A stretch of DNA of 64,000 nt from Minisyncoccota bacterium (lineage in GTDB: Bacteria; Patescibacteriota; Minisyncoccia; JAHIHE01; JAGLIN01). Shown piece after piece: positions 5,180 to 49,876 of the stretch (positions within the stretch are counted from its first letter, which is position 1; every line of letters starts with the position of its first letter). The notes beneath the pieces are model-generated. The model was not told the origin of the DNA, did not search any database, and worked only from the letters and a program-made list of their open reading frames with translations. The translations under genes were made by a program, and so were the position numbers. The DNA is taken from the NCBI GenBank assembly GCA_041661265.1, contig JBAZUT010000003.1, positions 143,191 to 207,190 of the forward strand, given 5' to 3'.

Positions 5180-5197
5180 TTTTATACAAACAAATAC

Positions 5198-31013: not shown

Positions 31014-31049
31014 TTATTTTTTAAAAGAAATATTGAAACTTCCTCCATA

Positions 31050-31078
31050 TTGACTAAGTTGGGATATTGTGGTATAAT
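31050..31078 (+). promoter_or_regulatory. Near-consensus extended -10 sigma70 promoter for the giant gene
   Basis: TTGACT, a 17-bp spacer and TGgTATAAT. The TATAAT lies inside the ORF-track N-terminus (MWYN...), which argues that the true start is the ATG at 31112. Confidence 0.5.
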
Positions 31079-31111
31079 GAAAAGTCAATATTTACCCCTA
31101 AATTCAAATCT

Positions 31112-34100: not shown

Positions 34101-36793
34101 ATCAGCAAAAACTTGAAAATAGGATAAACGAAATAAACGAAAATCCCAGCGCGAGACCTGCCGAAACTCCAAAGGAAACAACAAACGAAACAGCAGAGAT
34201 CGAAACAATGAGCGATGAAGATATCAAGAAAGAAACCGATACTGATGCTCTTCAGGAAAAGATCGACGAAACCATCGACTACCTGAAAAATACTGAAAAC
34301 ATATCCGAAGAAGACCATTCGAGGCTTTCCGTGTATATAGATAATCTGCAGATCAGGAAAAGCGAATTGGAAAAGATATTGATCAGCAAGGGATACAAAA
34401 AAATAAACGCGGGAATTAAGGATCTGAATAAAAACATGATACAGATCGAACGGACATCCGAAACACAAGAGATTGAAAACATCAAAAATGCAAAAACCGT
34501 AAAAGAGCTGAGCGATGGAATCAGGAATATCGAAGCCAAGGGCTTTGACGGAAAGGATATCGCCAACATCAAGAAACTGAAAGATGTCATGGAGAACATA
34601 TTCTCTCAAATTGCAGATGAGAAAGGCGGAAAGCTCAAGAATGACGTAAACTCGCCGGACTTCAGGAATATAGTAACCGATTCCGCCAAAGACGCTACGG
34701 CAAAATCGTATATCGTGGCGTTATTTGCAGCGATCGAAAATATCAGATCAGAACGCAGAATTGAATTAAACGTCGGAGATAAAATAAGAATGAAAGAAAA
34801 AGACGGACAGGTCCGCGATGGATGGATCGTGACAAAGATCGACGGCAAAAATGCCGAAGTTCAAAACGATAAAAACGGAGAGATTCTTGAAACGACCCTT
34901 GGCGAATTGGCCGGCTGGCAGGACGATAAGCTTATGGAAGAAGCAAAGAGAATAAAGGATAAAGAAGAAGAGATCAAGCTGAGAGAATATGAACTGCAGT
35001 TAAACGGCGGCGAAACAGAAAAGGACGAGAAACTGAATAAGCTGAAAAGCGAGCTGAAAGAATTAAAGGGAGTTAAGACCGGGAAAGATGAGAAAAAGGA
35101 AGGGCCTCAAACCTATGGGGAAATCGTTGAAAACATGAAAAAAATGGGAGAATTCCTTGAAAAAAGAAAAGTTGAACTTTCAAAGATCAATAGCGACGAA
35201 CAAATACAGAAGATCAAGGACAAGGTCAGCAGAGGCGAGAAATTGAGCGAAAAAGAAACCTCACAATACAAATCGATGTTCATGGCAAAAGACGAGGTTA
35301 CGATCTCCGAGATCGGCATATCTGCGATACAGAACGCAGACCTGTACAAGATCGACCTCCCATCCCTATCGCATGAGGAAGCAATGAAAGTTCTGGATCG
35401 GCGCATAAAAGCCAGTAAAGTGGATCTTTTTCTTCATGAGAAATTGAGAAGCTCCATTCGTTCCTGCAACGAAAAAATATCCCAGATGGATGAGGGAAGA
35501 CGTGGGGTATATGGCGCAATCGCAGACGGCATTTTGCGCGCCGCAAAACATATCCCGATCATAAAGAATTATACTTATCCGAATCTCGAAGCAAAAACAG
35601 AGCAGGAAAAGAAAAGAGAAGAAGGCATCAAAGAGGGAGCGACCGTGAGCATAAAAGAGAAAAAAGGTATAAGTGAAAAATGGAAGATCGTGAAAATCGA
35701 AGGTAATAAGGTTATCGTCGAAAAAGAGAACAGGGCCATGAAAGAATTCAAAGAAAAAGATCTGATGAAATGGAACAGCATAACCGAAAAAGGTAAATTC
35801 AAAAAAGGCGACAAGATTAGGGTCATGGTTGACGGCAAGATCGGAACTGATTGGGTCATCGAGAATGTCGAAGACAATAAGATCTTGGCTGCAAACGATA
35901 AAGCCAAAACGGAAAAAACGGTCAAAAAAGAAGATATCGTCAGCATTCAGGAAAAAGCCGCGGACAAGGAAAGCTTTAAGGATCTCCTGAGGGAACTGAA
36001 TGAGTTAAAAAGCAAGGATCTGGATATGACAAATATCAAAGATATGGCAAGTTTTGACAAGACATCAAAAGCATTGAAAACCAAATTCAATGAGATGTCG
36101 CAAAAAACGTCCTATTTTGAGGGTTTGGAAGATAAAGCGAAGAATGACATTGTGAATGTATTCAATATAGACCTTAATTGGTACAATGAATGCGTCAGAA
36201 AGAAAAAGACTGAAGAGAAAATGAAAGATAGGGAGCAGGACAAAAAAGGATTCAACGACAAAGTAGAGCAGCACAAAAATCTTATAAAAAGACTGCCGGA
36301 TGAACTGAAGGATTTCAAGGAAAGCCTTGAAAAGTTCATTGAATTTGCGAGCCAAACATATCATGAAACAAAATATTCAGACGAACCTGCCGACAATGAT
36401 AATGAGAAAGAAGAAAAGACTCTGCTGAAAAAGATGTTCACAGGAAAAGAGATCAGGGCGATCAAGGACAGTGAAGATGCTGATGAATTGATCGAGGCTG
36501 TTGAAAAATTTAAAACGGAGCTTAAACCTCAAATAAAGGATCATAAGGCCATAGAATCATGCTATTTGGTTTTGGACGATCTTGCCAACGACTCCAAGAG
36601 GAACAAAAATATAAGAAAATATACAAGAGATAAAATAAGGGACGAGATAGAAAAAATCGAAGATGACAATGCAAAGAAATACCTTAGAGCGGTTTTGGAG
36701 AAAATCGACGGACTGATCACGTCAAAAAAAGCTGCTGTTGGAGACAAGCCCAAGAAAACATCGAAAAACAAATCCAAAACGCGGAAAAAATAG
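31112..36793 (+). CDS. Giant (about 1,893 aa) charged coiled-coil protein with four KOW/SH3-like small beta modules
   Basis: Continuous ORF rich in K/E/D heptad-like segments. Four related modules of roughly 45 aa sit near 32570 (GDYIRIAERQNNQISLIEV), 34773 (GDKIRMKEKDGQVRDGWIVTKI), 35636 and 35815 (GDKIRVMVDGKIGTDWVIENV). Confidence 0.6.
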   Translation: MEFRGNEDPKSSAEQLKRFETEKEKLETIYDYLINGKDKEGNEITTREGKNRAKQDKKEIKRNITELTNKINVISATLGKHQEESSTDKKEIEEQGDDKETGAEYFGSSMEDISLVASTILGETDKTVEKLDSRGSQNIQKLENAKATQKELGEAKKNEDQISSESKSEAEKLKSKLLELTFPEMVAVDGLDNQQLENKLNEVENFLKINKIDVAFEEDQEIKSDVEKKLSKAMIAIGAYRRDLLQKKLGIGGIGDDTKMPPSEKLEIPKHIDLDLKNNDNLEALKPILEEGNHHEIVAEIMKIAGLKPEELQNFDYRIESNKDKSTAEIVFSKKDSMDKEFTIAIDLSGGKIEKITDEDRLRMFNELTDLFAERGDLIKQRSNAKDKEEIRRIDADLSAVNSKLDSLYKKIDRPETISAFDDSEKDKIKKIGEILRSARVTDSFDYMSGTGSADLVEDTIRKRGGFKRPDDPKKEQQAPQENIKIGQTYECINPYFDFYKKGDYIRIAERQNNQISLIEVDSDGKQLSRSIISDNDSEIDEFLKCFKEIDLEPNSSVNNNEKTMEQIPIEPISGAESNDDNLSIERFDFENISDKEDLSNRLFEFGKKLEESNLRTEREISTDLLLFLQNKSLGHLESAKMQIDKCTNENAKNKLQELIVKCEEIVKNEPKPKEDNKAEKTETEKFEDIRKKWKWYESVIDGCENHPDWNIKRIIENLEYFTSHPFFKEDLLEYGLDQNENNRKTAENIRNEELNKSIKMFEKWISVEDDFMKKSEEIKKTYNESSGNRKKEDIIKSLKESLENLDSSVLDGTELEDNDENKKTGLAIQSNIFRKLLEELEGKKEEIAKAEPIKEGEEQKQSKEQENGSLLGIKIKTAEDVGKMTNDEFMSAGGEAFAKYEELESGKDFETLKTTDEFLVFAGYLNILTSEHDKRTREGRIEVKKHRIASNEEINALDMKSLQEELSRTEIYLNYIKTNKSQEDWFSSEFSDYGLYQQKLENRINEINENPSARPAETPKETTNETAEIETMSDEDIKKETDTDALQEKIDETIDYLKNTENISEEDHSRLSVYIDNLQIRKSELEKILISKGYKKINAGIKDLNKNMIQIERTSETQEIENIKNAKTVKELSDGIRNIEAKGFDGKDIANIKKLKDVMENIFSQIADEKGGKLKNDVNSPDFRNIVTDSAKDATAKSYIVALFAAIENIRSERRIELNVGDKIRMKEKDGQVRDGWIVTKIDGKNAEVQNDKNGEILETTLGELAGWQDDKLMEEAKRIKDKEEEIKLREYELQLNGGETEKDEKLNKLKSELKELKGVKTGKDEKKEGPQTYGEIVENMKKMGEFLEKRKVELSKINSDEQIQKIKDKVSRGEKLSEKETSQYKSMFMAKDEVTISEIGISAIQNADLYKIDLPSLSHEEAMKVLDRRIKASKVDLFLHEKLRSSIRSCNEKISQMDEGRRGVYGAIADGILRAAKHIPIIKNYTYPNLEAKTEQEKKREEGIKEGATVSIKEKKGISEKWKIVKIEGNKVIVEKENRAMKEFKEKDLMKWNSITEKGKFKKGDKIRVMVDGKIGTDWVIENVEDNKILAANDKAKTEKTVKKEDIVSIQEKAADKESFKDLLRELNELKSKDLDMTNIKDMASFDKTSKALKTKFNEMSQKTSYFEGLEDKAKNDIVNVFNIDLNWYNECVRKKKTEEKMKDREQDKKGFNDKVEQHKNLIKRLPDELKDFKESLEKFIEFASQTYHETKYSDEPADNDNEKEEKTLLKKMFTGKEIRAIKDSEDADELIEAVEKFKTELKPQIKDHKAIESCYLVLDDLANDSKRNKNIRKYTRDKIRDEIEKIEDDNAKKYLRAVLEKIDGLITSKKAAVGDKPKKTSKNKSKTRKK

Positions 36794-36820
36794 CCACCAA
36801 ATAATCAATTAACTAAAATT

Positions 36821-37141
36821 ATGAAACTTATAGACGATAAAATGATCGAGGATATAATAGACTCCCTGGGCCTTCGGTTTCTTTCAGTCGAAAAAAGAAA
36901 TGAGATCTTGACTATGACGCTTGAACTTATCAGCAAGAGGGCCAGCATCAGAATAATTGAAAGCTTAAACGACGTCGAAGTCGGAGAGTTCAGCAACATC
37001 CCCAAAAATGAATTTGAAAAAATAGAAGATTTCCTCATTTTAAAGAATCCGAATGCAAAGACCATATTTGAAGAAGAACTTGCAAAGACCAAGAACGATA
37101 TTTTGAGTTCAAAGATTAACTTAAGCAACAATGAACAATAG
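36821..37141 (+). CDS. Hypothetical small protein
   Basis: 106-aa ORF lying between co-oriented genes. No motif was found. Confidence 0.35.
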   Translation: MKLIDDKMIEDIIDSLGLRFLSVEKRNEILTMTLELISKRASIRIIESLNDVEVGEFSNIPKNEFEKIEDFLILKNPNAKTIFEEELAKTKNDILSSKINLSNNEQ

Positions 37142-37313
37142 CGAAAAAATAAAAAAGATCAAAGAGATCTATGGCGCATTTCACGCCAAAATGAGAGATA
37201 TAATAAAACGGCAGTCCGATCTTATCGAGAAAATAGGCAGGCATTCGGATAACAAGAAGATCGAACAGGTCCGGAATAAGATCAGGAATTTATAATTTAT
37301 CATTGTAAAATAT

Positions 37314-38954
37314 ATGGCAAAACCAGAGGATACTCTTGATGAAACGAATATTAATAAGAAGGAGGCGAAAGAGATCGGCGTCGAAAACGAATCAGGCGGG
37401 GAGGTTTTAGCTGTTGAGACCGAAAAAACGAGGGAAGAAACCGACATGGTTACAAGCGGCGAGAGCATGACCGAAAACAGAATTGCCGCCCTGGAAGCGG
37501 AAAGCGATCCAAAAGCAAGTGAATTTCGCGGCGAAGCGGAAACCATCCAAAATGATCGCAGATCCGCGGAATCAACTCGCGACATGGACTTAGATAGACT
37601 TGAAGAAACAAATGAAACCGGGCAGGAAGCTGAATCGATGGATGAAGCAACGATAAAAAAATTATTGACCACCCTTGATTCCGCAAAACTGGATGCCCCG
37701 GAAAAGAAGAGAGTGCTTGATAAATTGATCGCGTCATACGAGAAATTGTACGGCAGCGCGAATGAGGATGAAAGAACCGCGATATTCAAAGAAAATCCTA
37801 CTCTCCGGGAAATTGTCGGATTGATCAATAAGATAGATAACGACATAAAACAAGCAGGTCCGGGAAACGAGCATGACAATGAGCCTGACACGGAAGATGT
37901 GACCGATGAAACAAATGAGAGCCCTGAATCAGGAGCTGATCCGATCAAAGAAAAGATCAAAAACAATGAGATGCTTTCGGTCGAGGAAGAAAAGATCTTG
38001 TTTGATAAATGCGAGAAGATCATTTTAAAGCAAAGGAACGGAGAGGATATAAGCGAGGAAGAGGTCGCCATGGTCATGATGTACCAAGAAGCTGTCGGAA
38101 AGGGCCTTACAGCCAAAGGCGCGGAAGTAAATGAGTCGGTAGATAAAGACGTGGAAGAAATAAATGCATTCAATGAAAAAAGCAAGGAAGAGAAAGACAA
38201 GGATATCAACGAGAGGCTGGAAAAGATCAAAAGCTCGGGAATAGAACTTAGTGATAAAGCTGAAGATGCTGAGGAACATATCAAGGAACTGGAAAAACAG
38301 CTCAAAGACAGATATGACGAATTTACAAAGATGGAAGAAGATATAGAAAAGATCAGAAATACCGAAGGCGTTGACCAGGAGGGTGCGAGAACATTAAAAA
38401 ACACCATTTCTTCACTGAAAAATATATATACGGACAAGCTGCACATAGAATATTATGAATATTGGATCAAATACCTCAAGGGAGGAGTGGAATCCCTGCA
38501 TGACTCCCATGCAAAACATAATATTTCCATGAATCAGCTGGAGACGCTTGGCGGGGACCTTGAAAGCGACCTTGCAAGCATAGAAAAAGGCGAATCGGAA
38601 GTACTTGCGAAATGGGCACAGTTTATAAAAGATCATCCAAAAACTGGACTTGCGCTTATTACCGCCGCCTTAGCCGCCGGAATCTTACTATCTCCATATC
38701 TTGTAAAATTTCTCGGCGCGCCGGAAATTGCAAAGCTTGGCACGGGAGCATTGGCTCCGCTGATGAAGCCGACTATAGCGTTGGGCGCAAAAGCAGTCGG
38801 AAGTCTGGCGTCGATATCAGGTTCCGTGGGTCTCGCAGGCATATTTCTTTTGCTGACGAACAGCGAAAAGATCGATGATGCCATGGAATCGATCTGGGGG
38901 AAGAAGATCCCCAATTGGGCCTCCTGGGGCCTAAAGAAGAAAGGCCAGAAGTAA
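37314..38954 (+). CDS. Acidic coiled-coil protein with a C-terminal multi-helix membrane anchor
   Basis: 546 aa. A D/E-rich body is followed by a hydrophobic C-terminus LALITAALAAGILL...GSVGLAGIFLLL. Confidence 0.5.
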   Translation: MAKPEDTLDETNINKKEAKEIGVENESGGEVLAVETEKTREETDMVTSGESMTENRIAALEAESDPKASEFRGEAETIQNDRRSAESTRDMDLDRLEETNETGQEAESMDEATIKKLLTTLDSAKLDAPEKKRVLDKLIASYEKLYGSANEDERTAIFKENPTLREIVGLINKIDNDIKQAGPGNEHDNEPDTEDVTDETNESPESGADPIKEKIKNNEMLSVEEEKILFDKCEKIILKQRNGEDISEEEVAMVMMYQEAVGKGLTAKGAEVNESVDKDVEEINAFNEKSKEEKDKDINERLEKIKSSGIELSDKAEDAEEHIKELEKQLKDRYDEFTKMEEDIEKIRNTEGVDQEGARTLKNTISSLKNIYTDKLHIEYYEYWIKYLKGGVESLHDSHAKHNISMNQLETLGGDLESDLASIEKGESEVLAKWAQFIKDHPKTGLALITAALAAGILLSPYLVKFLGAPEIAKLGTGALAPLMKPTIALGAKAVGSLASISGSVGLAGIFLLLTNSEKIDDAMESIWGKKIPNWASWGLKKKGQK

Positions 38955-38997
38955 TTTTGACCCCATATTTTAGTTTTGATATACGTAACATAATCCC

Positions 38998-39429
38998 ATG
39001 ACCGAAACAAATCACGAAATGAGCATCAAATCAGAGATCGAGCTTTTGGAAAAGCAATTGCAGGAAAAAAAACAGGCTCTTGAAAAAGGTCCTGCCGGAA
39101 AAAAGGAAGCTGAAATATCGAAAGAAAACGTGAACGAGGCTGAATTGTCAAACGTTCAGACCGCTACGCAAGCGCAGACAAAACCCGCGCTTACGAGCGA
39201 CGAGGACAAAACTGCCGAGATCAGCACGGACATAAGCAAAATAAAGGACCTTGATGTTTCGCGTCAGGTCAAGATCCTAACGACGTTGGCTTTTGAAAAA
39301 GGGATCCAATATAGCATAAAAGTCGCGCGCGGACTGAACAGCCCGTATCTTCTTGATGAACTTCATGATAAACTGGTGGGAGAACTTCACGACGAACTCG
39401 TAAAAAAAGGAAAATTGAAAGAAATATGA
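38998..39429 (+). CDS. Hypothetical coiled-coil protein
   Basis: 143-aa ORF co-oriented with its neighbours. Confidence 0.4.
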   Translation: MTETNHEMSIKSEIELLEKQLQEKKQALEKGPAGKKEAEISKENVNEAELSNVQTATQAQTKPALTSDEDKTAEISTDISKIKDLDVSRQVKILTTLAFEKGIQYSIKVARGLNSPYLLDELHDKLVGELHDELVKKGKLKEI

Positions 39430-39462: not shown

Positions 39463-41928
39463 ATGGAAATCGATTTTATTGATCTGGTCATTACAGTCGG
39501 CATTTTTGATTTTGCCGTGTTGTTTTTTGTTTTTTTTATTTTTTGTTTTTTTGTCTACTTTATCTCAAACTTGAAAAGCTCGGGACAGCTTTCGCGCTCG
39601 CTGAATATGACCGTTCTCCGGATCGCTGTGCCGAAAAACAACCAAAAAGAACAGAAAGAAACAGGCGAAGCGGAAAAGGAAAGTATTTCCATAATGGAAC
39701 ATCTTTTCGCAAGCTTGAGCAATATCAGGGAAGAGTCTATGAAGAAGCTGATCTATGGCCCATTTTATCTTTCTTTCGAGATATCTACGCCGATAGACAG
39801 CAATGAAATTTTTTTCTATGTTTCATGCCCGAAAAAGTTCCAGTCGATAATCGAAAAACAGATACATAGCTTTTATTCAGACGCGGAGATCAAAAAGATC
39901 GACGACTACAATTCATTCGTTCCCAACGGAAAAAGCGCAGGATGCTATTTGAAACTCAAAAAAACCACCGCATTCCCTCTGAAAACATACAGAAGACTCG
40001 AAGCCGATCCGATCTCAAGCATAACCAATGCGCTCAGCAAGATCCCTGTCGGAAAAGGCGCAGCCATACAGATCATAATCAAACCGACAGATAATCTCTG
40101 GCACCAGGAAAGCACTGAGCTCATCAAAGAAATGCAAAAGGGCAGAGGATTCGGCGGAAAAAAACAATCTTCGACCGTAAAAGCGATCGGCGAATTTGCA
40201 AAGATCGCTGCCGGAACAGACTCAAAGAAGGATGAAAAGAAAAAGCAGGAAGAACTTCAGATAAAACTTACATCTTCTCAGGAAGAAACGATGAAAGCCG
40301 TTTCCGAGAAAGCGACTAAGGTCGGATTTATGACCAATATACGGATAGTCACATCAGCTCCTACGCTTGAAGAAGCAAAAATGACGCTGAACGAGATTGA
40401 GAATTCATTCACTCAATTCGGTTCACCGGACCTCAACTCATTCGAGATCAGCGAGCTTGTGGGGGGAAGTCTCAATCAGGCAATATATAATTTTATATTC
40501 AGAAATTTCGACAAGTCGCGGAAGATCATCCTCAACACGGAAGAGCTTGCCAGCATATATCATTTCCCGATCATGTCGACACAGACCCCTCAGGTCAATT
40601 GGCTGAAATCAAAACAGGCGCCGGCGCCGAACAATATCGTCGAAAAGGGATTGATATTGGGGCACAATACATACAGAGGGATCGACACGATCATAAAGAT
40701 CGGACGCGAAGACAGAAGAAGGCACATGTACGTCATCGGACAGACCGGAACCGGAAAGTCGGCTTTCCTCGGCGAACTCATTAAGCAGGATATAAAAAAT
40801 GGCGACGGCATATGTCTTATAGACCCGCATGGCGATCTTGTTGAAGAGGCACTGGGTTCGGTTCCAAAAGACAGAGCTGAGGACGTCGTGCTTTTCGATC
40901 CGTCAAACATGCAGAAGCCGATGGGGTTGAACCTTCTTGAATATGATCCGAATTATCCCGAGCAAAAGACGTTTGTCATCAATGAAATGATCAAGATCTT
41001 CGATAAATTATATGATCTGAAATCCACAGGCGGACCGATGTTCGAGCAATATATGAGAAATGCGATGCTTCTTATCATGGAAGATCCCGCCTCAGGATCC
41101 ACGCTGATCGAAATCTCAAAAGTTCTTGCGGATGCGGAGTTCAGAAAATATAAATTATCGAAATGCAAGAATTATGTCGTCAAGAATTTCTGGCAAAAAG
41201 AAGCTGAAAAGGCCGGCGGGGAAGCGGCTCTTGCGAATATGGTACCCTACATCACAAGCAAGCTGACACAATTCATATCCAACGACACAATGCGACCGAT
41301 CATCGGCCAGCAGAAAAGCTCCATAAATTTCAGAGAAATAATGGATAATCGCAAGATCCTTCTTGTGAACCTTTCAAAGGGAAGGATCGGAGAAATGAAC
41401 GCATATCTTTTGGGACTTGTTATTGTCGGAAAAATACTGGTTTCATCGCTCAGCAGAACCGACATGCCGCAGGAAGAAAGAAAAGATTTCTATCTATATA
41501 TCGACGAGTTCCAGAATTTCACAACCGACAGCATTTCAACCATACTTTCTGAAGCGAGAAAATATCGATTGTGCCTCAACATAGCGCATCAATTCCTCGG
41601 CCAGCTTCCCGAAGAGATCCAAAAGTCCGTATTCGGAAACGTCGGAAGCATAATCTCTTTCAGGATCGGCCCCGAGGACGCCGAATTTATGACAAAACAA
41701 TTCATGCCCGTATTTGATGAACAGGACCTTATCAACATCGACAACTACAACGCCTACGTAAAACTTATGATATCGGGAACCATAAGCAGGGGATTTAATA
41801 TGGCCACATTCCCGCCGCTCAAGACAAATCTCGAGATCGCAAGCGCAATTAAAGAGCTTTCTTCACTTAAATATGGCCGTGATAGAGAAGTTATCGAACG
41901 CGAGATAATACAAAGAACGCTGATCTAG
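39463..41928 (+). CDS. VirD4/TrwB/TraG-family type IV coupling-protein-like P-loop ATPase with an N-terminal TM anchor
   Basis: N-terminal TM helix (VITVGIFDFAVLFFVFFIFCFFVYF). The Walker A block MYVIGQTGTGKSAFLGELIKQDIKNGDGICLIDPHGDLVEE is colinear with the TrwB block ATGTGKSVLLRELAYTGLLRGDRMVIVDPNGD. The Walker B is YLYIDEFQNF (TrwB has FIDELASL). Total length is 821 aa. Confidence 0.65.
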   Translation: MEIDFIDLVITVGIFDFAVLFFVFFIFCFFVYFISNLKSSGQLSRSLNMTVLRIAVPKNNQKEQKETGEAEKESISIMEHLFASLSNIREESMKKLIYGPFYLSFEISTPIDSNEIFFYVSCPKKFQSIIEKQIHSFYSDAEIKKIDDYNSFVPNGKSAGCYLKLKKTTAFPLKTYRRLEADPISSITNALSKIPVGKGAAIQIIIKPTDNLWHQESTELIKEMQKGRGFGGKKQSSTVKAIGEFAKIAAGTDSKKDEKKKQEELQIKLTSSQEETMKAVSEKATKVGFMTNIRIVTSAPTLEEAKMTLNEIENSFTQFGSPDLNSFEISELVGGSLNQAIYNFIFRNFDKSRKIILNTEELASIYHFPIMSTQTPQVNWLKSKQAPAPNNIVEKGLILGHNTYRGIDTIIKIGREDRRRHMYVIGQTGTGKSAFLGELIKQDIKNGDGICLIDPHGDLVEEALGSVPKDRAEDVVLFDPSNMQKPMGLNLLEYDPNYPEQKTFVINEMIKIFDKLYDLKSTGGPMFEQYMRNAMLLIMEDPASGSTLIEISKVLADAEFRKYKLSKCKNYVVKNFWQKEAEKAGGEAALANMVPYITSKLTQFISNDTMRPIIGQQKSSINFREIMDNRKILLVNLSKGRIGEMNAYLLGLVIVGKILVSSLSRTDMPQEERKDFYLYIDEFQNFTTDSISTILSEARKYRLCLNIAHQFLGQLPEEIQKSVFGNVGSIISFRIGPEDAEFMTKQFMPVFDEQDLINIDNYNAYVKLMISGTISRGFNMATFPPLKTNLEIASAIKELSSLKYGRDREVIEREIIQRTLI

Positions 41929-42098: not shown

Positions 42099-42180
42099 AT
42101 TTCACTATCACACCCAATAAGCCGTTTTAAAGGCCGGGTATTGCCAATTTGGCTGGAATTGATATAATGTTCTAGTATCT

Positions 42181-42285: not shown

Positions 42286-44268
42286 TTGATGATATTAAAA
42301 CAAAATATTTACGCGGTCAAGAAAAAAACAAAACAACTAAAATCGTTTTATGCGTTTATGTTGTTTTTTTGTGCCTTTTTCATTTATTCACCTTTTATAT
42401 TTTCCGGATACGCAAAAGCTGACACGCTTAATGACAAAGTTAATTTCCTCGTCGATTCTTCATATGACTCGAATAACCGGTCGAATATCGATACGACACT
42501 GAGAAAGATCAGCAATTACGCTTTTTTTTATGTCGAAAACGAATATTACGATTCCCTTGGATATGCCGAACAGGTTAAATTCGATTCCGACCTTGAAAAT
42601 CTTGCTTCCAGTTTTGATAACACGATATATCCCAGAATGCGCAATATCTTCGGGGATGAATGGAGTCCCGGAATTGACAACATGGAACACATCACAATAC
42701 TTTTCACAAAAACAAAAGAGAATGTCGGCGGTTATTTCAATCCCAACGACGAGTATCCGAAATCAAATGTCGTCGATGACAAAAGCAATGAGAGAGAAAT
42801 GCTCTATCTGAACGCAATTTTTGCAGGCAATGACAGGATAGAAAGTTTTATAGCCCATGAATTTCAGCACATGATAACGTGGTATCATAAAACTAAACTT
42901 AGAAATATCAATGACGACATCTGGCTGAACGAATCCAGATCGGAATATGCATCGACCGCGATAGGATATGATGACGACTATCAGAAAAGCAATCTTCGCG
43001 CCAGAGTCGAGAATTTCATGCAAAATCAGACTGACTCGCTTACGGAATGGCAGAACAAGATCCAGGATTATTCTTCCGTAAATCTCTTTTCTCAATACCT
43101 CGCCGATCATTTCGGAGGCGACACCTTCAGGACTATGATAGGCAATGATACTGCCGGCATCGAAAGCATAAATAAGGCGCTCAGCGAAAATGGCTTCACG
43201 AGCAGTGTTTTTTCCGATATTTTTTCGAATTGGAGCGTGGCCAATTATCTGAACAACAGATATTATCTTGACGGAAAATATGGATACATTAATCCAAATC
43301 TTACATATGACAATTTCCATCTGGCACCGACAAAGACCTATTTTATCGGCAACGACGATATTCCCGTCAGCATATCAGCTTCCATTAAAGACTGGAGTTC
43401 GAGATATTTTGAAATAAAACCGGCCAATAACCTGACGGGCTTGAATATCGAGATAAGCTTTAACGGCGATAATTCGGGTAAATTTGCTGTTCCATATGCG
43501 CTCATGTCCGGAGATGCGGTTGTTTCCGTGAGTAAAGCTATTCTTGACAGGAATCAGGATAATAAAATACTGGTCAAAAACTTCGGAACAGATATCACTT
43601 CCGTCATATTGATGCCGAATAGCCAGAAAAAAACAGAGGGATTCGGGAGCGAGATAGAATCATATTCATTTTCCATTTCCGTTAAGACGATCATCGGAGA
43701 ACTATACCCCGACGGCACAATTCTAAAATCATACAAAAATCCTGAAGTATATCTGATCGAGGACGGAAAGAAGAGGTGGATCACGAGCGCTGCGGCTTTT
43801 ATTTCAAACGGATACAGCTGGAATAACATAACCTATATAAATTCTAACGAACTCGACTTTTTTGAAAGAGGAGAAAATATTTATGCAAAAGACCTGAAAC
43901 CCGACGGCACTCTCATTAAGGGCAGCGGACCGGAGGTTTATATTGTTGAAAACGGAATGAAAAGATGGATAACGACAGCCGGAGTTTTCGTGTCGAGGGG
44001 CTATAAATGGGAAAACATCATAACTGTGTCGGAAAACGAACTCGGTTCATATACAGAAGGTCAGGATATATCTTTCCAGAATCTGAAACCCGACGGCACT
44101 CTCATTAAGGGCAGCGGACCGGAGGTTTATATTGTTGAAAACGGAATGAAAAGATGGATAACGACAGCCGGAGTTTTCGTGTCGAGGGGCTATAAATGGG
44201 AAGAGATCGTCGTGATCCCGGACATAGACTTGAACTCTTATGCGGACGGATTGGATATAGACAGATGA
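42286..44268 (+). CDS. Secreted protein with an HExxH (zincin-like) motif and three C-terminal repeats of about 63 aa
   Basis: Signal/TM helix LKSFYAFMLFFCAFFIYSPFIF. An AHEFQHM motif is present. The three C-terminal repeats (YPDGTILK...VYLIEDGKKRWITS...GYSWNNI) are related to those of the downstream hydrolase. Confidence 0.55.
   Translation: MMILKQNIYAVKKKTKQLKSFYAFMLFFCAFFIYSPFIFSGYAKADTLNDKVNFLVDSSYDSNNRSNIDTTLRKISNYAFFYVENEYYDSLGYAEQVKFDSDLENLASSFDNTIYPRMRNIFGDEWSPGIDNMEHITILFTKTKENVGGYFNPNDEYPKSNVVDDKSNEREMLYLNAIFAGNDRIESFIAHEFQHMITWYHKTKLRNINDDIWLNESRSEYASTAIGYDDDYQKSNLRARVENFMQNQTDSLTEWQNKIQDYSSVNLFSQYLADHFGGDTFRTMIGNDTAGIESINKALSENGFTSSVFSDIFSNWSVANYLNNRYYLDGKYGYINPNLTYDNFHLAPTKTYFIGNDDIPVSISASIKDWSSRYFEIKPANNLTGLNIEISFNGDNSGKFAVPYALMSGDAVVSVSKAILDRNQDNKILVKNFGTDITSVILMPNSQKKTEGFGSEIESYSFSISVKTIIGELYPDGTILKSYKNPEVYLIEDGKKRWITSAAAFISNGYSWNNITYINSNELDFFERGENIYAKDLKPDGTLIKGSGPEVYIVENGMKRWITTAGVFVSRGYKWENIITVSENELGSYTEGQDISFQNLKPDGTLIKGSGPEVYIVENGMKRWITTAGVFVSRGYKWEEIVVIPDIDLNSYADGLDIDR
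43894..44202 (+). repeat. Two 120-nt stretches identical at the nucleotide level (period 189 nt) within the CDS, indicating a recent tandem duplication
   Basis: CTGAAACCCGACGGCACTCTCATTAAGGGCAGCGGACCGGAGGTTTATATTG...GGCTATAAATGGGAA occurs at 43894-44013 and again at 44083-44202. Confidence 0.8.
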
Positions 44269-44354: not shown

Positions 44355-47300
44355 ATGATTATTACAAAATTAAATTCAAAGAAATTACCCTATTCTGCTA
44401 TTTTATTCCTAGCAGTATTTTTTGCCTTGTTCGAAAACATCGCATATGCATCGAATTCTATCGCGCCTGAAATAATACCCCGATCCGTCTGGGGAGGAAG
44501 CAAAACGACCCCGGATTGGCCAGTTGAATACGGCAATGCGGAAAAATTCGTAATTCACCACACCGCCAGCTCCACTCTCACTCCCGATGCGGACGGAAGC
44601 GGTAAATACACCGACATGGTGGAAAGCATATTCGATTATCACAGCGAAAAAAAAACCTGGTATGACGATGATGGGGAGTATGTCGGATTCGGAGATATAG
44701 GATACAACTACATCATAGATCCGAATGGGAATATTTATGAAGGCCGAGCCGGCGGGAACGGGAGCACCGGCGGACACGTGAAAGGATTCAATGTCGGCAG
44801 CATCGGCATTTCCGTTCTCGGAAGGTATCAAGGATATCTCAATTCCAAGAACGAGAACGTACCATCCCACCCCGTCACGGATTCGATCCTGGATTCTCTG
44901 AAAAATCTGATCGGCTGGCTTGCTTCTGCGAATAACATAGACCTGAACGCTACGACGGAATTCCATGGAAAAAATATAGACGGGATCGTCGGACACAGGG
45001 ACCTTTCGGCAACGATATGCCCGGGAAATGACCTTTATTCAAAACTCAGCGAGATACAGAATTCTGCCGTCATCAAAAAGACGGAATTCGACAAATACGC
45101 CTATCAGATTCCGGGCGACCGGTCGATATACGTCATCGACGAAGGCTATAAGCTGAAATTTAACTCGTTAGGGGAGCTTCCAAGCGGACACAGGAACAAA
45201 AATGTCATAGCCGCTTCCGAAGCTCAATTGGACCTTTTCAGATATAAGGATTCAACGATATATCCCGATGGATCGCTATTGCAGGAATTCGGTTCTAATG
45301 CGGTTTATTATATCGACAAACAGGAGAAAAGACATCTGAATATGAAAGGCGAAGAGTTTTCAAAAATGGGATTCGATAATTCCAAGATCATATACGTTTT
45401 TAAAAGCGATCTGAATATTTACAAAGAGGGGAAAAACATCAAATACGGACCGGACGGAAAATTGGTCAAAGACGCAAGTTCGAAAGTATACCTTATTCAG
45501 AGCGGAAAGAAAAGAGGATTCACCTCGGCAAAGCTTTTCGAGTTCCTCGGATATAGATGGAAGAATATCGAACTAGATGAAAACATCGGTCTTTATCTTG
45601 ATGGAGGCGATATGCTGTATCCGGACAAATCCCTGGTCAAAACCGCCGCCAGTCCCAATGTCTATTTCATTGAAAATAAGCAGAAAAGAAAAATAACCTC
45701 GGATACCCTGTTCAATAAGCTGGGATACAAGACAAAAAATGTGATCACGATCGAAGATGTCGAACTCTCCCATTTTCCGAGCGCAAAAAATATGACATAC
45801 CCCGACGGCACGCTCCTACAGCAAGAGAACAGGCCTTCGGTTTATCTCGTCGCAAATGGCAGTGTCAGGATATTTCCTTCAGCTGAATTATTCCTGAAAC
45901 TCGGATATAAATGGAAGAACGTGACCGCGATCAAGGCAGATGAGTTCAAGAATTATTCCTATGCAGGAAGGGTCCTGCAACCAAATGGGACATTGATCAG
46001 ACCATTGGACGGATCGGACATTTATCTTGTCGACAATGGCACAAAGAGAAAGATATCTTCGGCTTTAATGTTCGAAAAGCTCGGATACAAATGGAACAGC
46101 GTACTCCCGCTTCCACCGGACCAGATCAATGAATATCCTTCCGGAGAGAATTTAAAGTATCCGGATGGAACATTGATCAAAAAGGAAGGATCCGGGATCA
46201 TTTACAGAATCGACGGCGGGAAGATCAGGGAATTCACATCCCAAACGCTTTTCGAAAAGACCGGAAGCAAGTGGACGGATGTCGTGACTCTTCCGGCCAA
46301 TGAATTTGCAGCGTATGCATATGGCGGGATCGTAATGTATCCGAATAAGACTTTGCTCCGGGAAAAGGGAAAGGATGCCATCTATGTCATAAAAGATCAA
46401 AAAGCTTTGGGCATTAAAAGCCTGGCTGAATTCAATAAAGCCGGATATAAATGGAAGGATGTGATTGATCTGCCGAAAGAAGAAATAACCCTGATGATTG
46501 ATCCGGGCAAGGCGTTCCAGAGGGATGCAACACCGCAATACATTCCGGCCAAATCTCCGGCTAAAAGCGCGGATGCATTGACCAGCCAGGAAAAAACCGA
46601 GCCTCCCGCGTCGAACACTTCCGCCAACAAACCGGTTAATCCCGACATAAAGATAGCAATATACTCGATCACGGAAGGAAGTGTAAGGATGACGGCCAAC
46701 GGACCGTATAAAGTGGATCATATGAACGGAGACGGTACTATCCAGAAAACGGAAAAAAGATCCGCGAACGAGCAGACCGAAATAGCATATTTCAATTCCG
46801 CGTCCTATGTAAAATTCACCCCATCAAGCAAAGATACAGTGCTTGAGGTCGTGTCGTATAACGATCCATCCTGGAACAATGCCGTGAATGATAACAGATT
46901 CAGAGGTAATATTATAATCAAATACTCGGATATTTCCGATAAGCTATGGATCGTAAATGAGCTTCCTCTGGAAGATTACGTTAATGGAATAGCCGAAACT
47001 ACGAGCGAAAGCCATAACGAATATCTCAAGGCGTTCAGTATAATTGCAAGAACTTATGCAATGTATTATATTGAAAGGGGAGGCAAGCACATCGGAGAAC
47101 CTTTCCACCTGAAGAACAGCAGAAATGGAAATGGCAATGATCAGTCATATAAGGGATATAATTTCGAGATAAGAGCCGATAAGATAGTTTTGGCAAGCAG
47201 AGAAACTGCGGGAAAAATAATAACCTTTAACGGAAAACCGATTGTAGCGGCGTATTCATCGGATTCGGGCGGCGTTACAAAAAGCGCCTGTGATGTTCTG

Positions 47301-47510
47301 AGCAAAACTTATTGCAACAGCGACTTTTCCTATCTTTCCGGCGGCGCCAATGATCCAGATGGAACCGTTCACGACCGGAACAAGATGGCATCGAGTCATG
47401 GAGCCGGTATGAGTGCGGTGGGAGCCCTCAAGATGGCAGAAAACGGCACCTCCTTGCAGAACATGATCGCGCACTATTACCCTGGAGTTGAAATTATTAA
47501 ATATTATTGA
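44355..47510 (+). CDS. Secreted multidomain peptidoglycan hydrolase: PGRP/Amidase_2, about ten 60-aa repeats, and a SpoIID/LytB domain
   Basis: Signal peptide, then the Amidase_2 core (FVIHHTAS...GYNYIIDPNGNIYEGRAGG...ATICPGN). About ten tandem repeats follow (YPDG[ST]L[IL]..VY[LY]IxNGxKRxIxSxxxFxxLGYKWxNV). The C-terminal SpoIID signature is LEDYVNGIAE...ARTYAMYY...YSSDSGGVT. Confidence 0.75.
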   Translation: MIITKLNSKKLPYSAILFLAVFFALFENIAYASNSIAPEIIPRSVWGGSKTTPDWPVEYGNAEKFVIHHTASSTLTPDADGSGKYTDMVESIFDYHSEKKTWYDDDGEYVGFGDIGYNYIIDPNGNIYEGRAGGNGSTGGHVKGFNVGSIGISVLGRYQGYLNSKNENVPSHPVTDSILDSLKNLIGWLASANNIDLNATTEFHGKNIDGIVGHRDLSATICPGNDLYSKLSEIQNSAVIKKTEFDKYAYQIPGDRSIYVIDEGYKLKFNSLGELPSGHRNKNVIAASEAQLDLFRYKDSTIYPDGSLLQEFGSNAVYYIDKQEKRHLNMKGEEFSKMGFDNSKIIYVFKSDLNIYKEGKNIKYGPDGKLVKDASSKVYLIQSGKKRGFTSAKLFEFLGYRWKNIELDENIGLYLDGGDMLYPDKSLVKTAASPNVYFIENKQKRKITSDTLFNKLGYKTKNVITIEDVELSHFPSAKNMTYPDGTLLQQENRPSVYLVANGSVRIFPSAELFLKLGYKWKNVTAIKADEFKNYSYAGRVLQPNGTLIRPLDGSDIYLVDNGTKRKISSALMFEKLGYKWNSVLPLPPDQINEYPSGENLKYPDGTLIKKEGSGIIYRIDGGKIREFTSQTLFEKTGSKWTDVVTLPANEFAAYAYGGIVMYPNKTLLREKGKDAIYVIKDQKALGIKSLAEFNKAGYKWKDVIDLPKEEITLMIDPGKAFQRDATPQYIPAKSPAKSADALTSQEKTEPPASNTSANKPVNPDIKIAIYSITEGSVRMTANGPYKVDHMNGDGTIQKTEKRSANEQTEIAYFNSASYVKFTPSSKDTVLEVVSYNDPSWNNAVNDNRFRGNIIIKYSDISDKLWIVNELPLEDYVNGIAETTSESHNEYLKAFSIIARTYAMYYIERGGKHIGEPFHLKNSRNGNGNDQSYKGYNFEIRADKIVLASRETAGKIITFNGKPIVAAYSSDSGGVTKSACDVLSKTYCNSDFSYLSGGANDPDGTVHDRNKMASSHGAGMSAVGALKMAENGTSLQNMIAHYYPGVEIIKYY

Positions 47511-47517
47511 TAGTTCA

Positions 47518-47859
47518 ATGGAGCTGAACAAAAAAATATATTTTTCACTGATCGTATTTGCGATCAGTATTGCACAAGAGACCAATGCCACTCTGTCGAC
47601 ATTCGATTTTACTTCTCCAATTGAAAAAACTGACGTCAAAATCATATTGACTGACTTTCTTAAATGGCTGCTTACCGTGGTAGGATCATTCGCTTTTTTA
47701 GCGCTGATCATAGCAGGTATTTCATATATGACATCGATGGGCAATGTTGAAAAGGCTAAAAAGGCGAAAAAATCCGTGCTGTGGATAATCGGCGGACTAG
47801 TATTAATCCTGCTGTCATACTCCATTCTCGTAGTACTGGACAGTATTTTTACCGGTTAA
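47518..47859 (+). CDS. VirB2/TrbC-like pilin-type small protein, paralog 1
   Basis: Signal peptide, then two hydrophobic helices separated by a basic loop: FLKWLLTVVGSFAFLALIIAGISYMTSMGNVEKAKKAKKSVLWIIGGLVLILLSYSILVVL. The start was moved to the ATG at 47518 because 47488 overlaps the upstream gene. Confidence 0.5.
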   Translation: MELNKKIYFSLIVFAISIAQETNATLSTFDFTSPIEKTDVKIILTDFLKWLLTVVGSFAFLALIIAGISYMTSMGNVEKAKKAKKSVLWIIGGLVLILLSYSILVVLDSIFTG

Positions 47860-47877
47860 AAGCAAAATAAATTTAAT

Positions 47878-48216
47878 ATGAGATCAATTACGCATAGGAT
47901 CATATTCGTACTTTTGGTTTTTAGCATCATCGGCGCAGACAATGCACATTGCTTAACCACAACCTATAAACTTCCTCCGACAACATCAACAACGGATTTT
48001 CAGATGTTGCTGGTTAATTTATTACACTGGATGCTTTCCGTGATCGGTCCGATCGCATTGATAATGCTTATCATAGCAGGGATGATGCATATAACATCAG
48101 CAGGAGATCCTCAGAAGGCGGCTTCAGCAAAAAAAGTCTATATGGCCATGGCAGGCCTGATCATTGCGTTATTATCCTATTCAATGCTCGTATTATTAAA
48201 TAATATGTTTACATAA
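47878..48216 (+). CDS. VirB2/TrbC-like pilin-type small protein, paralog 2
   Basis: Same architecture as paralog 1: LLHWMLSVIGPIALIMLIIAGMMHITSAGDPQKAASAKK...LLSYSMLVLL. Confidence 0.5.
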   Translation: MRSITHRIIFVLLVFSIIGADNAHCLTTTYKLPPTTSTTDFQMLLVNLLHWMLSVIGPIALIMLIIAGMMHITSAGDPQKAASAKKVYMAMAGLIIALLSYSMLVLLNNMFT

Positions 48217-48224
48217 TATAAATT

Positions 48225-48584
48225 ATGACAAAAACAAATAACATTATGATTTCTTTAATTTGTCGCATTCTTCCGACGCTTTCAATATTCGCGCTTGTAA
48301 ATACCGCTAATGCAGCAACAACGACCTATAAAGTGACAAACCCGATAGCCACAAGCGATTTTGCAAAAATAGTGGCTAATTTTTTGAAATGGTTTCTTTC
48401 CGTAGCCGGAGCCATTGCGATGATAATGCTTATAGTAGCAGGCATCATGTATATGGGTTCAGCAGGAAATCCTCAGAAGGCGGCTTCAGCGAAAAAAATG
48501 GTGATGATAACACTAGGCGGACTGATATTATCGCTTTTATCATATTCGATCCTGGTAATACTTGATAATATTTTTACAAAATAA
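48225..48584 (+). CDS. VirB2/TrbC-like pilin-type small protein, paralog 3
   Basis: FLKWFLSVAGAIAMIMLIVAGIMYMGSAGNPQKAASAKK...LLSYSILVIL. The 31-nt stretch CAGGAAATCCTCAGAAGGCGGCTTCAGCGAA is shared almost exactly with paralog 2. Confidence 0.5.
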   Translation: MTKTNNIMISLICRILPTLSIFALVNTANAATTTYKVTNPIATSDFAKIVANFLKWFLSVAGAIAMIMLIVAGIMYMGSAGNPQKAASAKKMVMITLGGLILSLLSYSILVILDNIFTK

Positions 48585-48587
48585 CAT

Positions 48588-48953
48588 ATGACAACGATTG
48601 AAAGAAAGGGCGTAAAACTAATTTCCTTCTCCATATATTATTATGCATTTCTGATGGTCTTTCTCATTCAAAAGAAAGCTGAGGCTGCGTCGACGATCAC
48701 GGCAGTCACAAGAAAAATAAAAGTCAGCGACTTTGTGCATCTTATTGAAAACGTTTTTAAGTGGTCGCTCTCCGTTGCGGGAGGAATAGCGCTCATCATG
48801 CTCATAATCGGAGGCATCACATACATGACATCAACCGGAAATGAGCAGAAAGCCATGCAGGCAAAGAAAACATTTTATTGGGCGCTGGGCGGACTCATGC
48901 TACTGATCCTTGCGTATGGAATAGGTTTCGTCATATACGGAATATTCTTTTAA
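48588..48953 (+). CDS. VirB2/TrbC-like pilin-type small protein, paralog 4 (most divergent)
   Basis: FKWSLSVAGGIALIMLIIGGITYMTSTGNEQKAMQAKK...LAYGIGFVIYGIFF. Confidence 0.45.
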   Translation: MTTIERKGVKLISFSIYYYAFLMVFLIQKKAEAASTITAVTRKIKVSDFVHLIENVFKWSLSVAGGIALIMLIIGGITYMTSTGNEQKAMQAKKTFYWALGGLMLLILAYGIGFVIYGIFF

Positions 48954-48973: not shown

Positions 48974-49876
48974 ATGCAAAAAAAAGTTTACATTGTTGTC
49001 TTGAACTGGAATGGCCTTAGCGATGCAAGAGAATGTATCTTATCCCTTCAAAAGAATAACTATGCAAATTACGAAATAGTCGTTGTTGATAATGGTTCGA
49101 CTGATAATTCAGCGGCTATTTTAAAAAGGGCATTTCCATATATAACGATCATAGAGAATGGAATAAATTACGGTTTTGCGGGAGGAAACAATATAGGGAT
49201 CGAATATTCGCTAAGACAGGGGGCTGACTATATCCTGCTTCTGAACAATGACACCGCGGTCGAAAGCGCTTTCTTGTCGAAATTAGTGGAAGCGGGGGAT
49301 TCAGACGAAGCGATCGGCCTGGTGGAATCGAAGATATGCTATTACGACGAACCGAAAAAGATCTGGTTTGCCGGAGGAAAGATCGACTGGCTCAAAACAA
49401 AAGGGACTCATATGGGGATCAATGAATTGGACAACGGCCAATATGACAATATCCGCGAGGTTGATTATCTCACCGGGTGCTGTCTTCTCATAAAAAGATC
49501 CGTTTTTGAAAAGATCGGTAAACTCTCGGAAGACTATTTTTTATACTATGAGGACACGGATTTCTGCCTCCGGGCAAGGAACGCCGGATTCAAATGCATT
49601 TATGTTCCGAGTTCAAAGATCTACCATAAAGTTTCAAGATCGACCAAGCCCGGCTCGCCAAGCTATATCTATTACCACACCCGGAACGGATTATATCTTG
49701 CAAAAAAAAACGGCGGCACATTGAACAAGATATTATTGTATCCATTCTGCATATATCTTTTCGTAAAGCAAATATTAAAAATAGCCATTTTCCCCGCGAA
49801 AAGAAACTGGGCATTGGCGGTTCTGAGGGGCGAGAGAGATTTCCTTCTCGGAAAAACAGGTAAATCAGCTCTGTAG
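48974..49876 (+). CDS. Family 2 glycosyltransferase
   Basis: YIVVLNWNG...YEIVVVDNGSTDNS and a DxD-like LLNNDT motif. Confidence 0.75.
   Translation: MQKKVYIVVLNWNGLSDARECILSLQKNNYANYEIVVVDNGSTDNSAAILKRAFPYITIIENGINYGFAGGNNIGIEYSLRQGADYILLLNNDTAVESAFLSKLVEAGDSDEAIGLVESKICYYDEPKKIWFAGGKIDWLKTKGTHMGINELDNGQYDNIREVDYLTGCCLLIKRSVFEKIGKLSEDYFLYYEDTDFCLRARNAGFKCIYVPSSKIYHKVSRSTKPGSPSYIYYHTRNGLYLAKKNGGTLNKILLYPFCIYLFVKQILKIAIFPAKRNWALAVLRGERDFLLGKTGKSAL

Follow-up and report, generated by a model that had tools for sequence, protein, structure and literature searches.

A chromosomal array of four VirB2/TrbC-like pilin homologues flanked by cell wall hydrolase and glycosyltransferase genes in a Candidatus Paceibacterota genome

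Four tandem genes encode PF18895 family pilin homologues

Four genes lying in tandem on the + strand of a chromosome from a Candidatus Paceibacterota MAG, designated pil1 to pil4, encode paralogous VirB2/TrbC-like pilin homologues of the Patescibacteria T4SS family PF18895. Old tandem duplications at a single chromosomal site gave rise to the copies, and each paralog is maintained by purifying selection, with a conserved N-terminal segment of its own. With a probability of roughly 0.6, we read pil1 to pil4 as VirB2-like pilins of a Patescibacteria T4SS, that is, as old duplicated and selected copies that would be exported and polymerized by analogy with VirB2. The analysis covered a stretch of 64,000 nucleotides (the window), across which chromosomal housekeeping genes are present around the array.

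The genes pil1 (positions 47518 to 47859; 113 aa), pil2 (47878 to 48216; 112 aa), pil3 (48225 to 48584; 119 aa), and pil4 (48588 to 48953; 121 aa) are separated by 18, 8, and 3 nt, respectively, and gene calling done independently for three public contigs returned the identical four genes. The first-pass annotation had described four consecutive paralogs with a shared core, and this description was borne out by the gene boundaries, which are exactly those it gave, and by a pairwise amino acid identity of 37 to 54%, with 23 invariant columns. For pil1, we prefer the ATG start at 47518; the alternative TTG at 47488, which yields a 123-aa JGI call, falls within the 3' end of the amidase gene. When a profile built from relatives was compared with 491 six-frame open reading frames, exactly pil1 to pil4 were recovered as family members in the window.

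All four proteins score above the gathering threshold of PF18895 (T4SS_pilin; 26.6 bits), at 33.3, 30.9, 30.6, and 40.4 bits for pil1 to pil4, which upholds the earlier assignment to VirB2/TrbC-like pilins. The parallel comparison with PF04956 (TrbC/VirB2) that had been proposed was less decisive: pil3 (25.2 bits; E = 1.9e-5), pil1 (22.7 bits), and pil4 (17.5 bits) fall under the gathering score of 27.9 bits, with E values for the array's pilins spanning 1.9e-5 to 4.9e-3, and pil2 is not listed. Among the aligned relatives, PF18895 matched 56 of 56 sequences, and 30 of the 56 matched TrbC at E <= 1e-3 (best, 8.3e-8). The only NCBIfam model with matches from all four pilins is NF045849 (Mbov_0395 family pilin-like conjugal transfer protein; E = 9e-10 to 4.3e-5), whose alignment spans the whole hairpin (profile positions 8 to 79 of 80); the scores of 38.1, 23.1, 28.2, and 33.2 bits for pil1 to pil4 all lie below its cut-off of 40 bits. 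A profile search of PDB sequences with the pilins gave no pilin match.

Predicted topology of the pilins

Hydropathy analysis of each pilin revealed an N-terminal hydrophobic segment followed by two hydrophobic segments of ~25 residues each and a C terminus that is hydrophobic and not charged. The loop between the hydrophobic helices is basic and has the form G(N/D)xxKAxxAKK. In the AlphaFold2 model of pil3, helices occupy residues 5 to 30, 44 to 77, and 83 to 118, with a pLDDT of ~90 for the hairpin; this helical hairpin matches thousands of unrelated structures, and no pilin in the PDB was matched significantly by fold. Signal peptide cleavage was assigned by the (-3,-1) rule together with comparison of sequences. 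Each of the 21 aligned paralogs and orthologs has A, T, or V at -3 and A, C, or S at -1, and presequence length varies from 14 to 34 aa in these sequences, whereas the predicted mature part is constant at 86 to 89 aa. In the presequence of the pilins, a (-3,-1) signal peptidase motif is conserved, at which cleavage is predicted, and the predicted mature part consists of a polar, Thr/Ser-rich N-terminal segment and a two-helix hydrophobic hairpin with the conserved basic loop. The topology given in the first-pass annotation, with a signal peptide, two helices, and a short basic loop, is supported by hydropathy, the structural model, and the cleavage rule.

Neighboring genes and the secretion system reading

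Upstream of the array, the gene for a 1,051-aa peptidoglycan hydrolase (44355 to 47510, + strand) ends 7 nt before pil1. This protein combines Amidase_2 and SpoIID domains (Pfam E = 2.1e-17 and 5.7e-12, respectively), is predicted to be secreted or membrane anchored, with an N-terminal hydrophobic segment of its own for export (residues 11 to 33), and may be a functional analogue of VirB1. On the other side lies a family 2 glycosyltransferase (GT2) gene (48974 to 49876, + strand; PF00535 E = 2.5e-22). In the related loci, the pilin gene or genes invariably have the hydrolase gene as their immediate upstream neighbor (L004 to L007 and L010) and the GT2 gene as their immediate downstream neighbor (L004 to L007, L009, and L010). 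The hydrolase gene is preceded by a gene for a secreted protein of 660 aa that contains an HExxH motif (42286 to 44268, + strand), which has ~60-aa repeats in common with the hydrolase and is syntenic in L004 and L010. The best promoter-like site of the region (42141 to 42168) lies ahead of this gene, which is probably the first of the transcription unit, and no + strand terminator-like site was detected from that site to position 50200.

Two genes upstream of the array is an 821-aa VirD4/TrwB-like (T4CP-like) P-loop ATPase (39463 to 41928, + strand) with an N-terminal TM segment, DUF8128, and matches to DUF87, TrwB_AAD_bind, and TraG-D_C. Its match to the NCBIfam VirD4-like CD1115 model (E = 5.3e-11) is below the cut-off, and its profile found TrwB (1.3e-7) and DotL (5e-4) in the PDB. 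Identification of this ATPase as VirB4 was rejected, as all NCBIfam and PDB profile matches are to VirD4, TraD, TrwB, and DotL, without a VirB4 among them. Orthologs of the ATPase also occur in two Moranbacteria-like contigs of more distant relatives (L012 and L013) at loci without pilins, and we therefore rejected it as an obligate pilin partner; because its adjacency to pilins is lineage specific, we treat it as context only. The peptidoglycan hydrolase and coupling ATPase previously reported near the array were both confirmed. The VirD4-like protein is the sole T4SS-type ATPase in the window, and no homologues of VirB4, VirB6, or VirB3/PrgI were recognized among the open reading frames scanned in the window, which reaches 47 kb beyond the array on its upstream side and 15 kb on its downstream side.

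By analogy with VirB2, TraA, and TrbC, we infer that pil1 to pil4 form a pilus. Each precursor would be exported by Sec and cleaved by signal peptidase I, and the mature pilin would wait in the membrane, folded into a helical hairpin. The pilins would then be extracted and polymerized by a T4SS whose VirB4 core would be encoded elsewhere in the genome. In the filament, the conserved basic loop may line the lumen or the lipid face, and the N-terminal segments, which are specific to each paralog, may lie on the surface. The upstream hydrolase could breach the cell wall in the manner of VirB1, and with four stable subunit types, host cells could be contacted through a single mixed filament or through alternative ones. 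In reviews, a pilus built by a Patescibacteria T4SS is presented as no more than a possibility, and what the Saccharibacteria T4SS does is called completely unknown (PMC12857230, PMC11665869).

The same neighborhood can be read differently. The proteins could be VirB2 homologues by descent that build no extended pilus and instead act as membrane hairpins in a short envelope channel or in a VirB4-independent envelope-remodeling module with the hydrolases and GT2, a reading that we consider possible though rather unlikely. It draws on the tight, conserved synteny of the pilins between the amidase/SpoIID and GT2 genes, with gaps of 3 to 20 nt, on the one strong promoter-like site with no + strand terminator-like site after it up to 50200, and on a window without VirB4. 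Patescibacteria are, moreover, described as monoderm, and Gram-positive T4SSs are generally without pili (PMC10633639, PMC12857230). However, the family ties of pil1 to pil4 are to polymerizing pilins, the homologous Saccharibacteria arrays lie inside a T4SS cluster (PMC10633639), and adjacency by itself does not tie the pilins functionally to the hydrolase or GT2. Much more doubtful is a variant in which the pilins of this Paceibacteria lineage, the co-transcribed hydrolases, and GT2 would be a self-contained surface filament module without a VirB4 core, possibly with the DUF8128 ATPase; the four subunits, possibly glycosylated at their Thr/Ser-rich N termini, would make up one heteropolymeric host contact filament.

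Divergence of the paralogs and the pil2/pil3 tract

Returning to the reading of pil1 to pil4 as T4SS pilins, the paralogs and their orthologs fall into four orthology clades with bootstrap supports of 98% (pil1), 100% (pil2), 91% (pil3), and 99% (pil4). Ortholog dN/dS ratios of 0.09 to 0.28 across paralogs (0.10 to 0.12 for pil1, 0.28 for pil2, and 0.09 to 0.16 for pil4) indicate purifying selection. The fastest evolving paralog, pil2, is the sister of pil3, from which it is separated by a dS of ~1.0; it is an extra copy confined to four-gene arrays, with orthologs in only L007 and L008 among the related loci compared. Paralog divergence peaks in the mature N-terminal segment, where identity is 0.63 within ortholog groups versus 0.24 between paralogs; the corresponding values for the loop are 0.78 and 0.61. 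The site between the amidase and GT2 genes holds one pilin gene in L010, three in L004, L005, L006, and L009, and four in the window and L007. Across all related loci fetched, arrays of three, four, and six pilin genes were seen, the six-gene PF18895 family arrays being those of two Saccharibacteria loci (L014 and L015). This one-, three-, and four-copy series and the stable ortholog groups suggest that the copies are long-lived specialized subunits and not rapidly shuffled variants.

The first-pass annotation had also noted a near-identical stretch in pil2 and pil3 and taken the paralogs to be partly homogenized by gene conversion. The stretch itself was confirmed by nucleotide alignment: a loop-coding tract of pil2 (48101 to 48135, + strand; containing AGDPQKAASAKK) and its counterpart in pil3 (48463 to 48497, + strand; containing AGNPQKAASAKK) agree at 34 of 35 nt, and no comparable match arose in 100 shuffles. 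Such a tract could mark a variable-subunit array kept partly homogeneous by conversion between paralogs, with antigenic or host range variation as in the VirB2 paralogs of Bartonella and Anaplasma. Two further observations speak for this reading, which we regard as very improbable; both come from codon alignments in which five other genomes were represented by orthologs. The longest identity run on polymorphic sites of pil2 and pil3 gave a P value of 0.0026 (~0.016 corrected for six pairs), although this test ignores that constraint varies along the gene, and both tracts have CAG AAG where the orthologs have CAA AAA. The run test restricted to synonymous codons was not significant (P = 0.16). 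Over the codons of the tract, pil2 and pil3 agree at 37 of 39 nt in this genome, but also at 34 of 39 nt within L007 and at 33 to 35 of 39 nt when pil2-type and pil3-type genes of different genomes are compared. Because the tract is equally conserved between genomes, its similarity reflects a conserved loop, and recent gene conversion was rejected as unsupported. The dS of ~1.0, the clade support of 91 to 100%, and the dN/dS ratios likewise argue for stable, old, differentiated copies and against shuffling.

A holin/antiholin or other lysis-type identity, in which small multihelix hydrophobic proteins would release the adjoining N-acetylmuramoyl-L-alanine amidase, is effectively refuted: apart from a very weak Pfam match of pil3 to Hol_Tox (E = 0.075), neither Pfam nor PHROGs gave a meaningful holin family match, the outcome that the first-pass annotation had named as contrary to its reading (the best PHROGs matches being to families of unknown function, at E >= 0.0025), the amidase has its own export signal, the array lies on a housekeeping chromosome in synteny kept across diverged genomes, an IMG/VR pattern scan with a narrower alignment found no pilin relatives in viral contigs, and the proteins combine uncharged, hydrophobic C termini with a conserved presequence that is predicted to be cleavable. 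The same narrower alignment recovered two Saccharibacteria loci and no others from GTDB genomes; because just these two were recovered, the pattern scans say little on distribution.

Relation to known pilin systems

The array had been called unusual, which did not hold. A survey found 441 VirB2 arrays of 2 to 11 genes each in 383 Patescibacteria assemblies, most abundantly in Microgenomatia and Saccharimonadia, with a mean identity of 25% and a maximum of 54% (Quinonero-Coronel et al. 2025, PMC12102498). In Southlakia epibionticum ML1, a six-gene pilin array is essential (Wang et al. 2023, PMC10633639; PMC12857230). In view of these reports, and of the three-, four-, and six-gene arrays in related loci, the array is largely ordinary and of an arrangement already described in hundreds of Patescibacteria genomes, and the published picture is unchanged. 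It resembles the published arrays in PF18895 family, size, presequence and hairpin topology, tandem diverged copies, chromosomal location, and phylum, and its 37 to 54% identity places it at the similar end of their range. It differs in belonging to the class Paceibacteria and in lying between Amidase_2/SpoIID and GT2 genes, two genes downstream of a VirD4-like ATPase, with no recognizable virB4 adjacent; such pilins are typically, though not always, encoded close to virB4 and further T4SS core genes, as in 1,135 of 1,948 assemblies (PMC12102498). What the locus adds is the four supported clades under purifying selection, the variation between one, three, and four copies at one site, the N-terminal divergence peak, and the lack of support for gene conversion.

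Among more distant systems, the classical pilins VirB2 (Agrobacterium T-pilin), TrbC (RP4), and TraA (F) are alike in their long signal peptide, hydrophobic hairpin, and short basic loop. Mature conjugative pilins have ~70 to 80 aa, similar to the predicted mature length here. In contrast to the classical cases, profile similarity is weak though consistent (PF04956 subthreshold), the host is monoderm, and no virB operon surrounds the genes. The Mbov_0395 family of Mycoplasma ICEs offers a conjugation system of a wall-less monoderm with a whole-hairpin match, but the best score here (38.1 against 40 bits) is below the cut-off and there is no ICE context. The VirB2 paralogs of Bartonella and Anaplasma phagocytophilum, as cited in PMC12102498, are likewise tandem and diverged and are thought to vary an exposed surface; those organisms, however, are diderm pathogens of eukaryotes with immune-driven variation, whereas the paralogs here are old, orthologous, and under purifying selection, which argues for fixed specialization and not rapid variation.

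Patescibacteria are host dependent and account for a large part of the bacterial diversity that is uncultured, and their T4SS with its pilin array is essential in the one species tested. The present locus shows that such an array can stand apart from virB4 and beside cell wall hydrolase genes, which provides context for the proposed Patescibacteria pilus.

Four tandem genes encode T4SS pilin-like proteins

The four-gene array described in the first-pass annotation was recovered at exactly the same coordinates, as plus-strand open reading frames (ORFs) at 47518-47859 (pil1, 113 aa), 47878-48216 (pil2, 112 aa), 48225-48584 (pil3, 119 aa), and 48588-48953 (pil4, 121 aa), separated by 18, 8, and 3 nt. 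Gene calls were identical on three independent public contigs, and, of the 491 ORFs in a six-frame translation of the window, a profile HMM built from relatives picked out exactly these four. The products share 37-54% pairwise amino acid identity, with pil2 and pil3 the closest pair. Hydropathy analysis revealed an N-terminal hydrophobic segment, a polar stretch of ~20 residues, and two hydrophobic segments of ~25 residues joined by a G(N/D)xxKAxxAKK-type loop. An AlphaFold2 model of pil3, computed from an alignment of 56 sequences, placed helices at residues 5-30, 44-77, and 83-118 (mean pLDDT, 77.9; hairpin, ~90). All 21 aligned paralogs and orthologs had A, T, or V at position -3 and A, C, or S at position -1; the presequence was poorly conserved and variable in length, and the predicted mature part was constant at 86-89 aa. 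Together, these features provide good comparative evidence for a predicted cleavable Sec signal peptide.

All four proteins exceeded the gathering score of PF18895 (T4SS_pilin; 26.6 bits) with 30.6-40.4 bits, and three matched PF04956 (TrbC/VirB2) at E values of 1.9e-5 to 4.9e-3, all short of that family's cut-off, bearing out the original reading as VirB2/TrbC-like pilins. Among relatives, PF18895 was matched by 56/56 and TrbC, at E <= 1e-3, by 30/56. The sole NCBIfam match was to NF045849, a Mycoplasma ICE pilin-like family, just under its cut-off. At locus L011, in a more distant Patescibacteria genome (GCA_029260905.1), single genes of the PF18895 family stand at 4840-5643 (minus strand) and 10001-10378 (plus strand), adjoining hrcA-grpE-dnaK-dnaJ and clpB genes, and one encodes a 267-aa protein; the family is therefore not confined to T4SS-like or hydrolase contexts.

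For this family, public database annotations cannot be relied on. NCBI lists pil1-pil4 (WC788_03670 to WC788_03685, from a Candidatus Paceibacterota MAG) as hypothetical proteins. JGI starts pil1 at a TTG at 47488, within the end of the amidase gene (giving a gene at 47488-47859), shortens pil2 to 100 aa, and gives relatives names such as "glucose uptake protein GlcU," "CaiB-like acyl-CoA transferase," and "cytochrome bd quinol oxidase subunit 2."

Genomic setting and possible secretion machinery

The window is ordinary chromosome, containing genes for aminoacyl-tRNA synthetases, a Mur ligase, FemAB, FtsQ, glycogen metabolism, BacA, and Sua5. Directly upstream of pil1, with a gap of 7 nt, lies the gene for an Amidase_2 and SpoIID peptidoglycan hydrolase (44355-47510, plus strand; 1051 aa) with its own N-terminal export segment, preceded by that for a secreted 660-aa HExxH protein (42286-44268, plus strand); a GT2 glycosyltransferase gene (48974-49876, plus strand) directly follows pil4. 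Of the sigma-70-like sites in the region, the best (42141-42168, plus strand; TTGCCA, 16-nt spacer, TATAAT, upstream TG; 11/12 matches) lies just 5' of the HExxH gene, and no plus-strand terminator-like site was found after it up to 50200, which suggests a single predicted transcription unit comprising the HExxH gene, the hydrolase gene, pil1-pil4, and the GT2 gene. The HExxH protein and the hydrolase share a ~60-aa repeat (PDGTLIK..VY.I.NG.KR.I..), present in three copies per protein under a strict pattern, two of those in the HExxH protein being nearly identical. The repeat matched no Pfam family and might serve to bind the cell wall or a host. The GT2 gene is always 3' of the pilin gene(s), in the window and in six related loci (L004-L007, L009, and L010), and the predicted mature pilin N termini are Thr/Ser-rich (ATTTYK, LTTTYKLPPTTSTT, ASTITAVT); pilin glycosylation is a possibility.

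Further upstream, a P-loop ATPase of 821 aa (39463-41928, plus strand) has a TM segment at its N terminus and a DUF8128 domain; its P-loop domain matches DUF87, TrwB_AAD_bind, and TraG-D_C. Its NCBIfam matches were to VirD4-like and TraD families, all sub-cut-off, and a 24-sequence profile searched against the PDB retrieved TrwB (1.3e-7), DotL (5e-4), and HerA, with no match to VirB4. More than 5000 homologues exist, with 55-75% identity across Paceibacteria and Moranbacteria, and a frequent NCBI name for them is [quoted passage not shown] These matches and names make the term "coupling ATPase," used in the first-pass annotation, reasonable, and a VirB4 pilus-assembly motor was rejected. Directly upstream is a run of five K/E-rich ORFs (30309-39429, plus strand; 234, 1908, 106, 546, and 143 aa), none reaching a Pfam gathering score; only the 546-aa protein has TM segments, with two or three hydrophobic stretches toward the C terminus. 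Two more distant, Moranbacteria-like contigs (L012 and L013) retain the ATPase ortholog and its upstream genes, with no pilins downstream; the positional equivalents before the ATPase encode large unannotated proteins, a ~110-aa DUF5663 protein, and a ~170-aa protein. This arrangement suggests an ATPase module conserved across Patescibacteria.

PF18895 membership, topology, and the conserved signal-peptidase motif are properties of all four pilins. We propose that the precursors would be exported by Sec and then cleaved, that the mature pilins would be stored in the membrane as hairpins, and that a T4SS encoded elsewhere would extract and polymerize them, with the basic loop facing the lumen, the paralog-specific N termini exposed at the surface, and the Amidase_2/SpoIID hydrolase in a VirB1-like role. 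VirB4, VirB6, and VirB3 were not recognized within the window; Paceibacteria virB4 is usually near dnaA/dnaN in a published survey (PMC12102498), so virB4 may lie elsewhere in the MAG. The main rival holds that the pilins reside in the membrane without a pilus and have a role tied to the putatively co-transcribed envelope enzymes; the predicted transcription unit is consistent with it, the T4SS-pilin family assignment favors the filament, and we consider this rival rather unlikely.

The paralogs are old and individually conserved

At the amidase/SpoIID-GT2 site, one pilin is present in L010, three (pil1-, pil3-, and pil4-type) in L004, L005, L006, and L009, and four in the window and L007; L008, a partial contig, carries a pil2-type gene. 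A neighbor-joining tree of 51 proteins resolved pil1-pil4 orthology clades with bootstrap values of 98, 100, 91, and 99%, respectively, and weakly placed pil2 as sister to pil3 (51%). Identity within ortholog groups versus between paralogs was 0.63 versus 0.24 for the mature N-terminal segment and 0.72-0.78 versus ~0.6 for TM1 and for the loop. The genes are under purifying selection, and each paralog keeps a stable character of its own (ortholog dN/dS, 0.09-0.16 for pil1, pil3, and pil4 and 0.28 for pil2; dS of pil2 versus pil3, ~1.0). Together, the tree, the rates, and the identities indicate that the copies are old and each individually conserved. Paralog divergence is maximal in the mature N-terminal segment, which in a filament of the VirB2 type would lie at the surface.

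The first-pass annotation had also taken a near-identical tract in pil2 and pil3 as a sign of gene conversion. The tract is real (48101-48135 versus 48463-48497; 34/35 positions), and in the window the 13 loop codons of these genes are identical at 37/39 nt, against 62% for the whole gene. However, the same codons agree at 35/39 nt between L008 pil2 and either window or L009 pil3, at 34/39 nt between the L007 paralogs, and at 33/39 nt between window pil2 and L009 pil3. Since paralogs are just as similar across genomes, the tract gives no support to recent homogenization. A polymorphic-site run test gave a P value of 0.0026, ignoring uneven constraint along the gene; limited to synonymous codons, it gave 0.16. 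The sole genome-specific signal in the tract is a pair of synonymous states, CAG AAG, shared by pil2 and pil3. The tract most plausibly represents the protein's most constrained stretch, inherited from the pil2/pil3 duplication, and gene-conversion-driven variation of the array is very improbable. That the proteins are holins is scarcely credible: searches of pil1-pil4 against Pfam and PHROGs gave no match to a holin family.

Comparison with published arrays

Using the PF04956 and PF18895 models on 3,035 Patescibacteria genomes, Quinonero-Coronel et al. reported 441 pilin arrays of 2-11 genes across 383 assemblies; identity averaged 25% and reached 54% at most (PMC12102498). In S. epibionticum, a pilin series within the T4SS cluster is essential, as described by Wang et al. 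(PMC10633639), and a 2025 review considers Patescibacteria systems unique among monoderms in their potential for conjugative pili (PMC12857230). In light of these published arrays, the window array is a further example of a known phenomenon; the original observation was correct and its main interpretation right, but neither the claimed unusualness nor the homogenization holds. Two Saccharibacteria loci recovered from GTDB genomes (L014, 9800-12237; L015, 9235-11936) each contained six consecutive ORFs with E values of 1e-13 to 1e-22 against the pilin profile, in agreement with the published six-gene arrays of that class.
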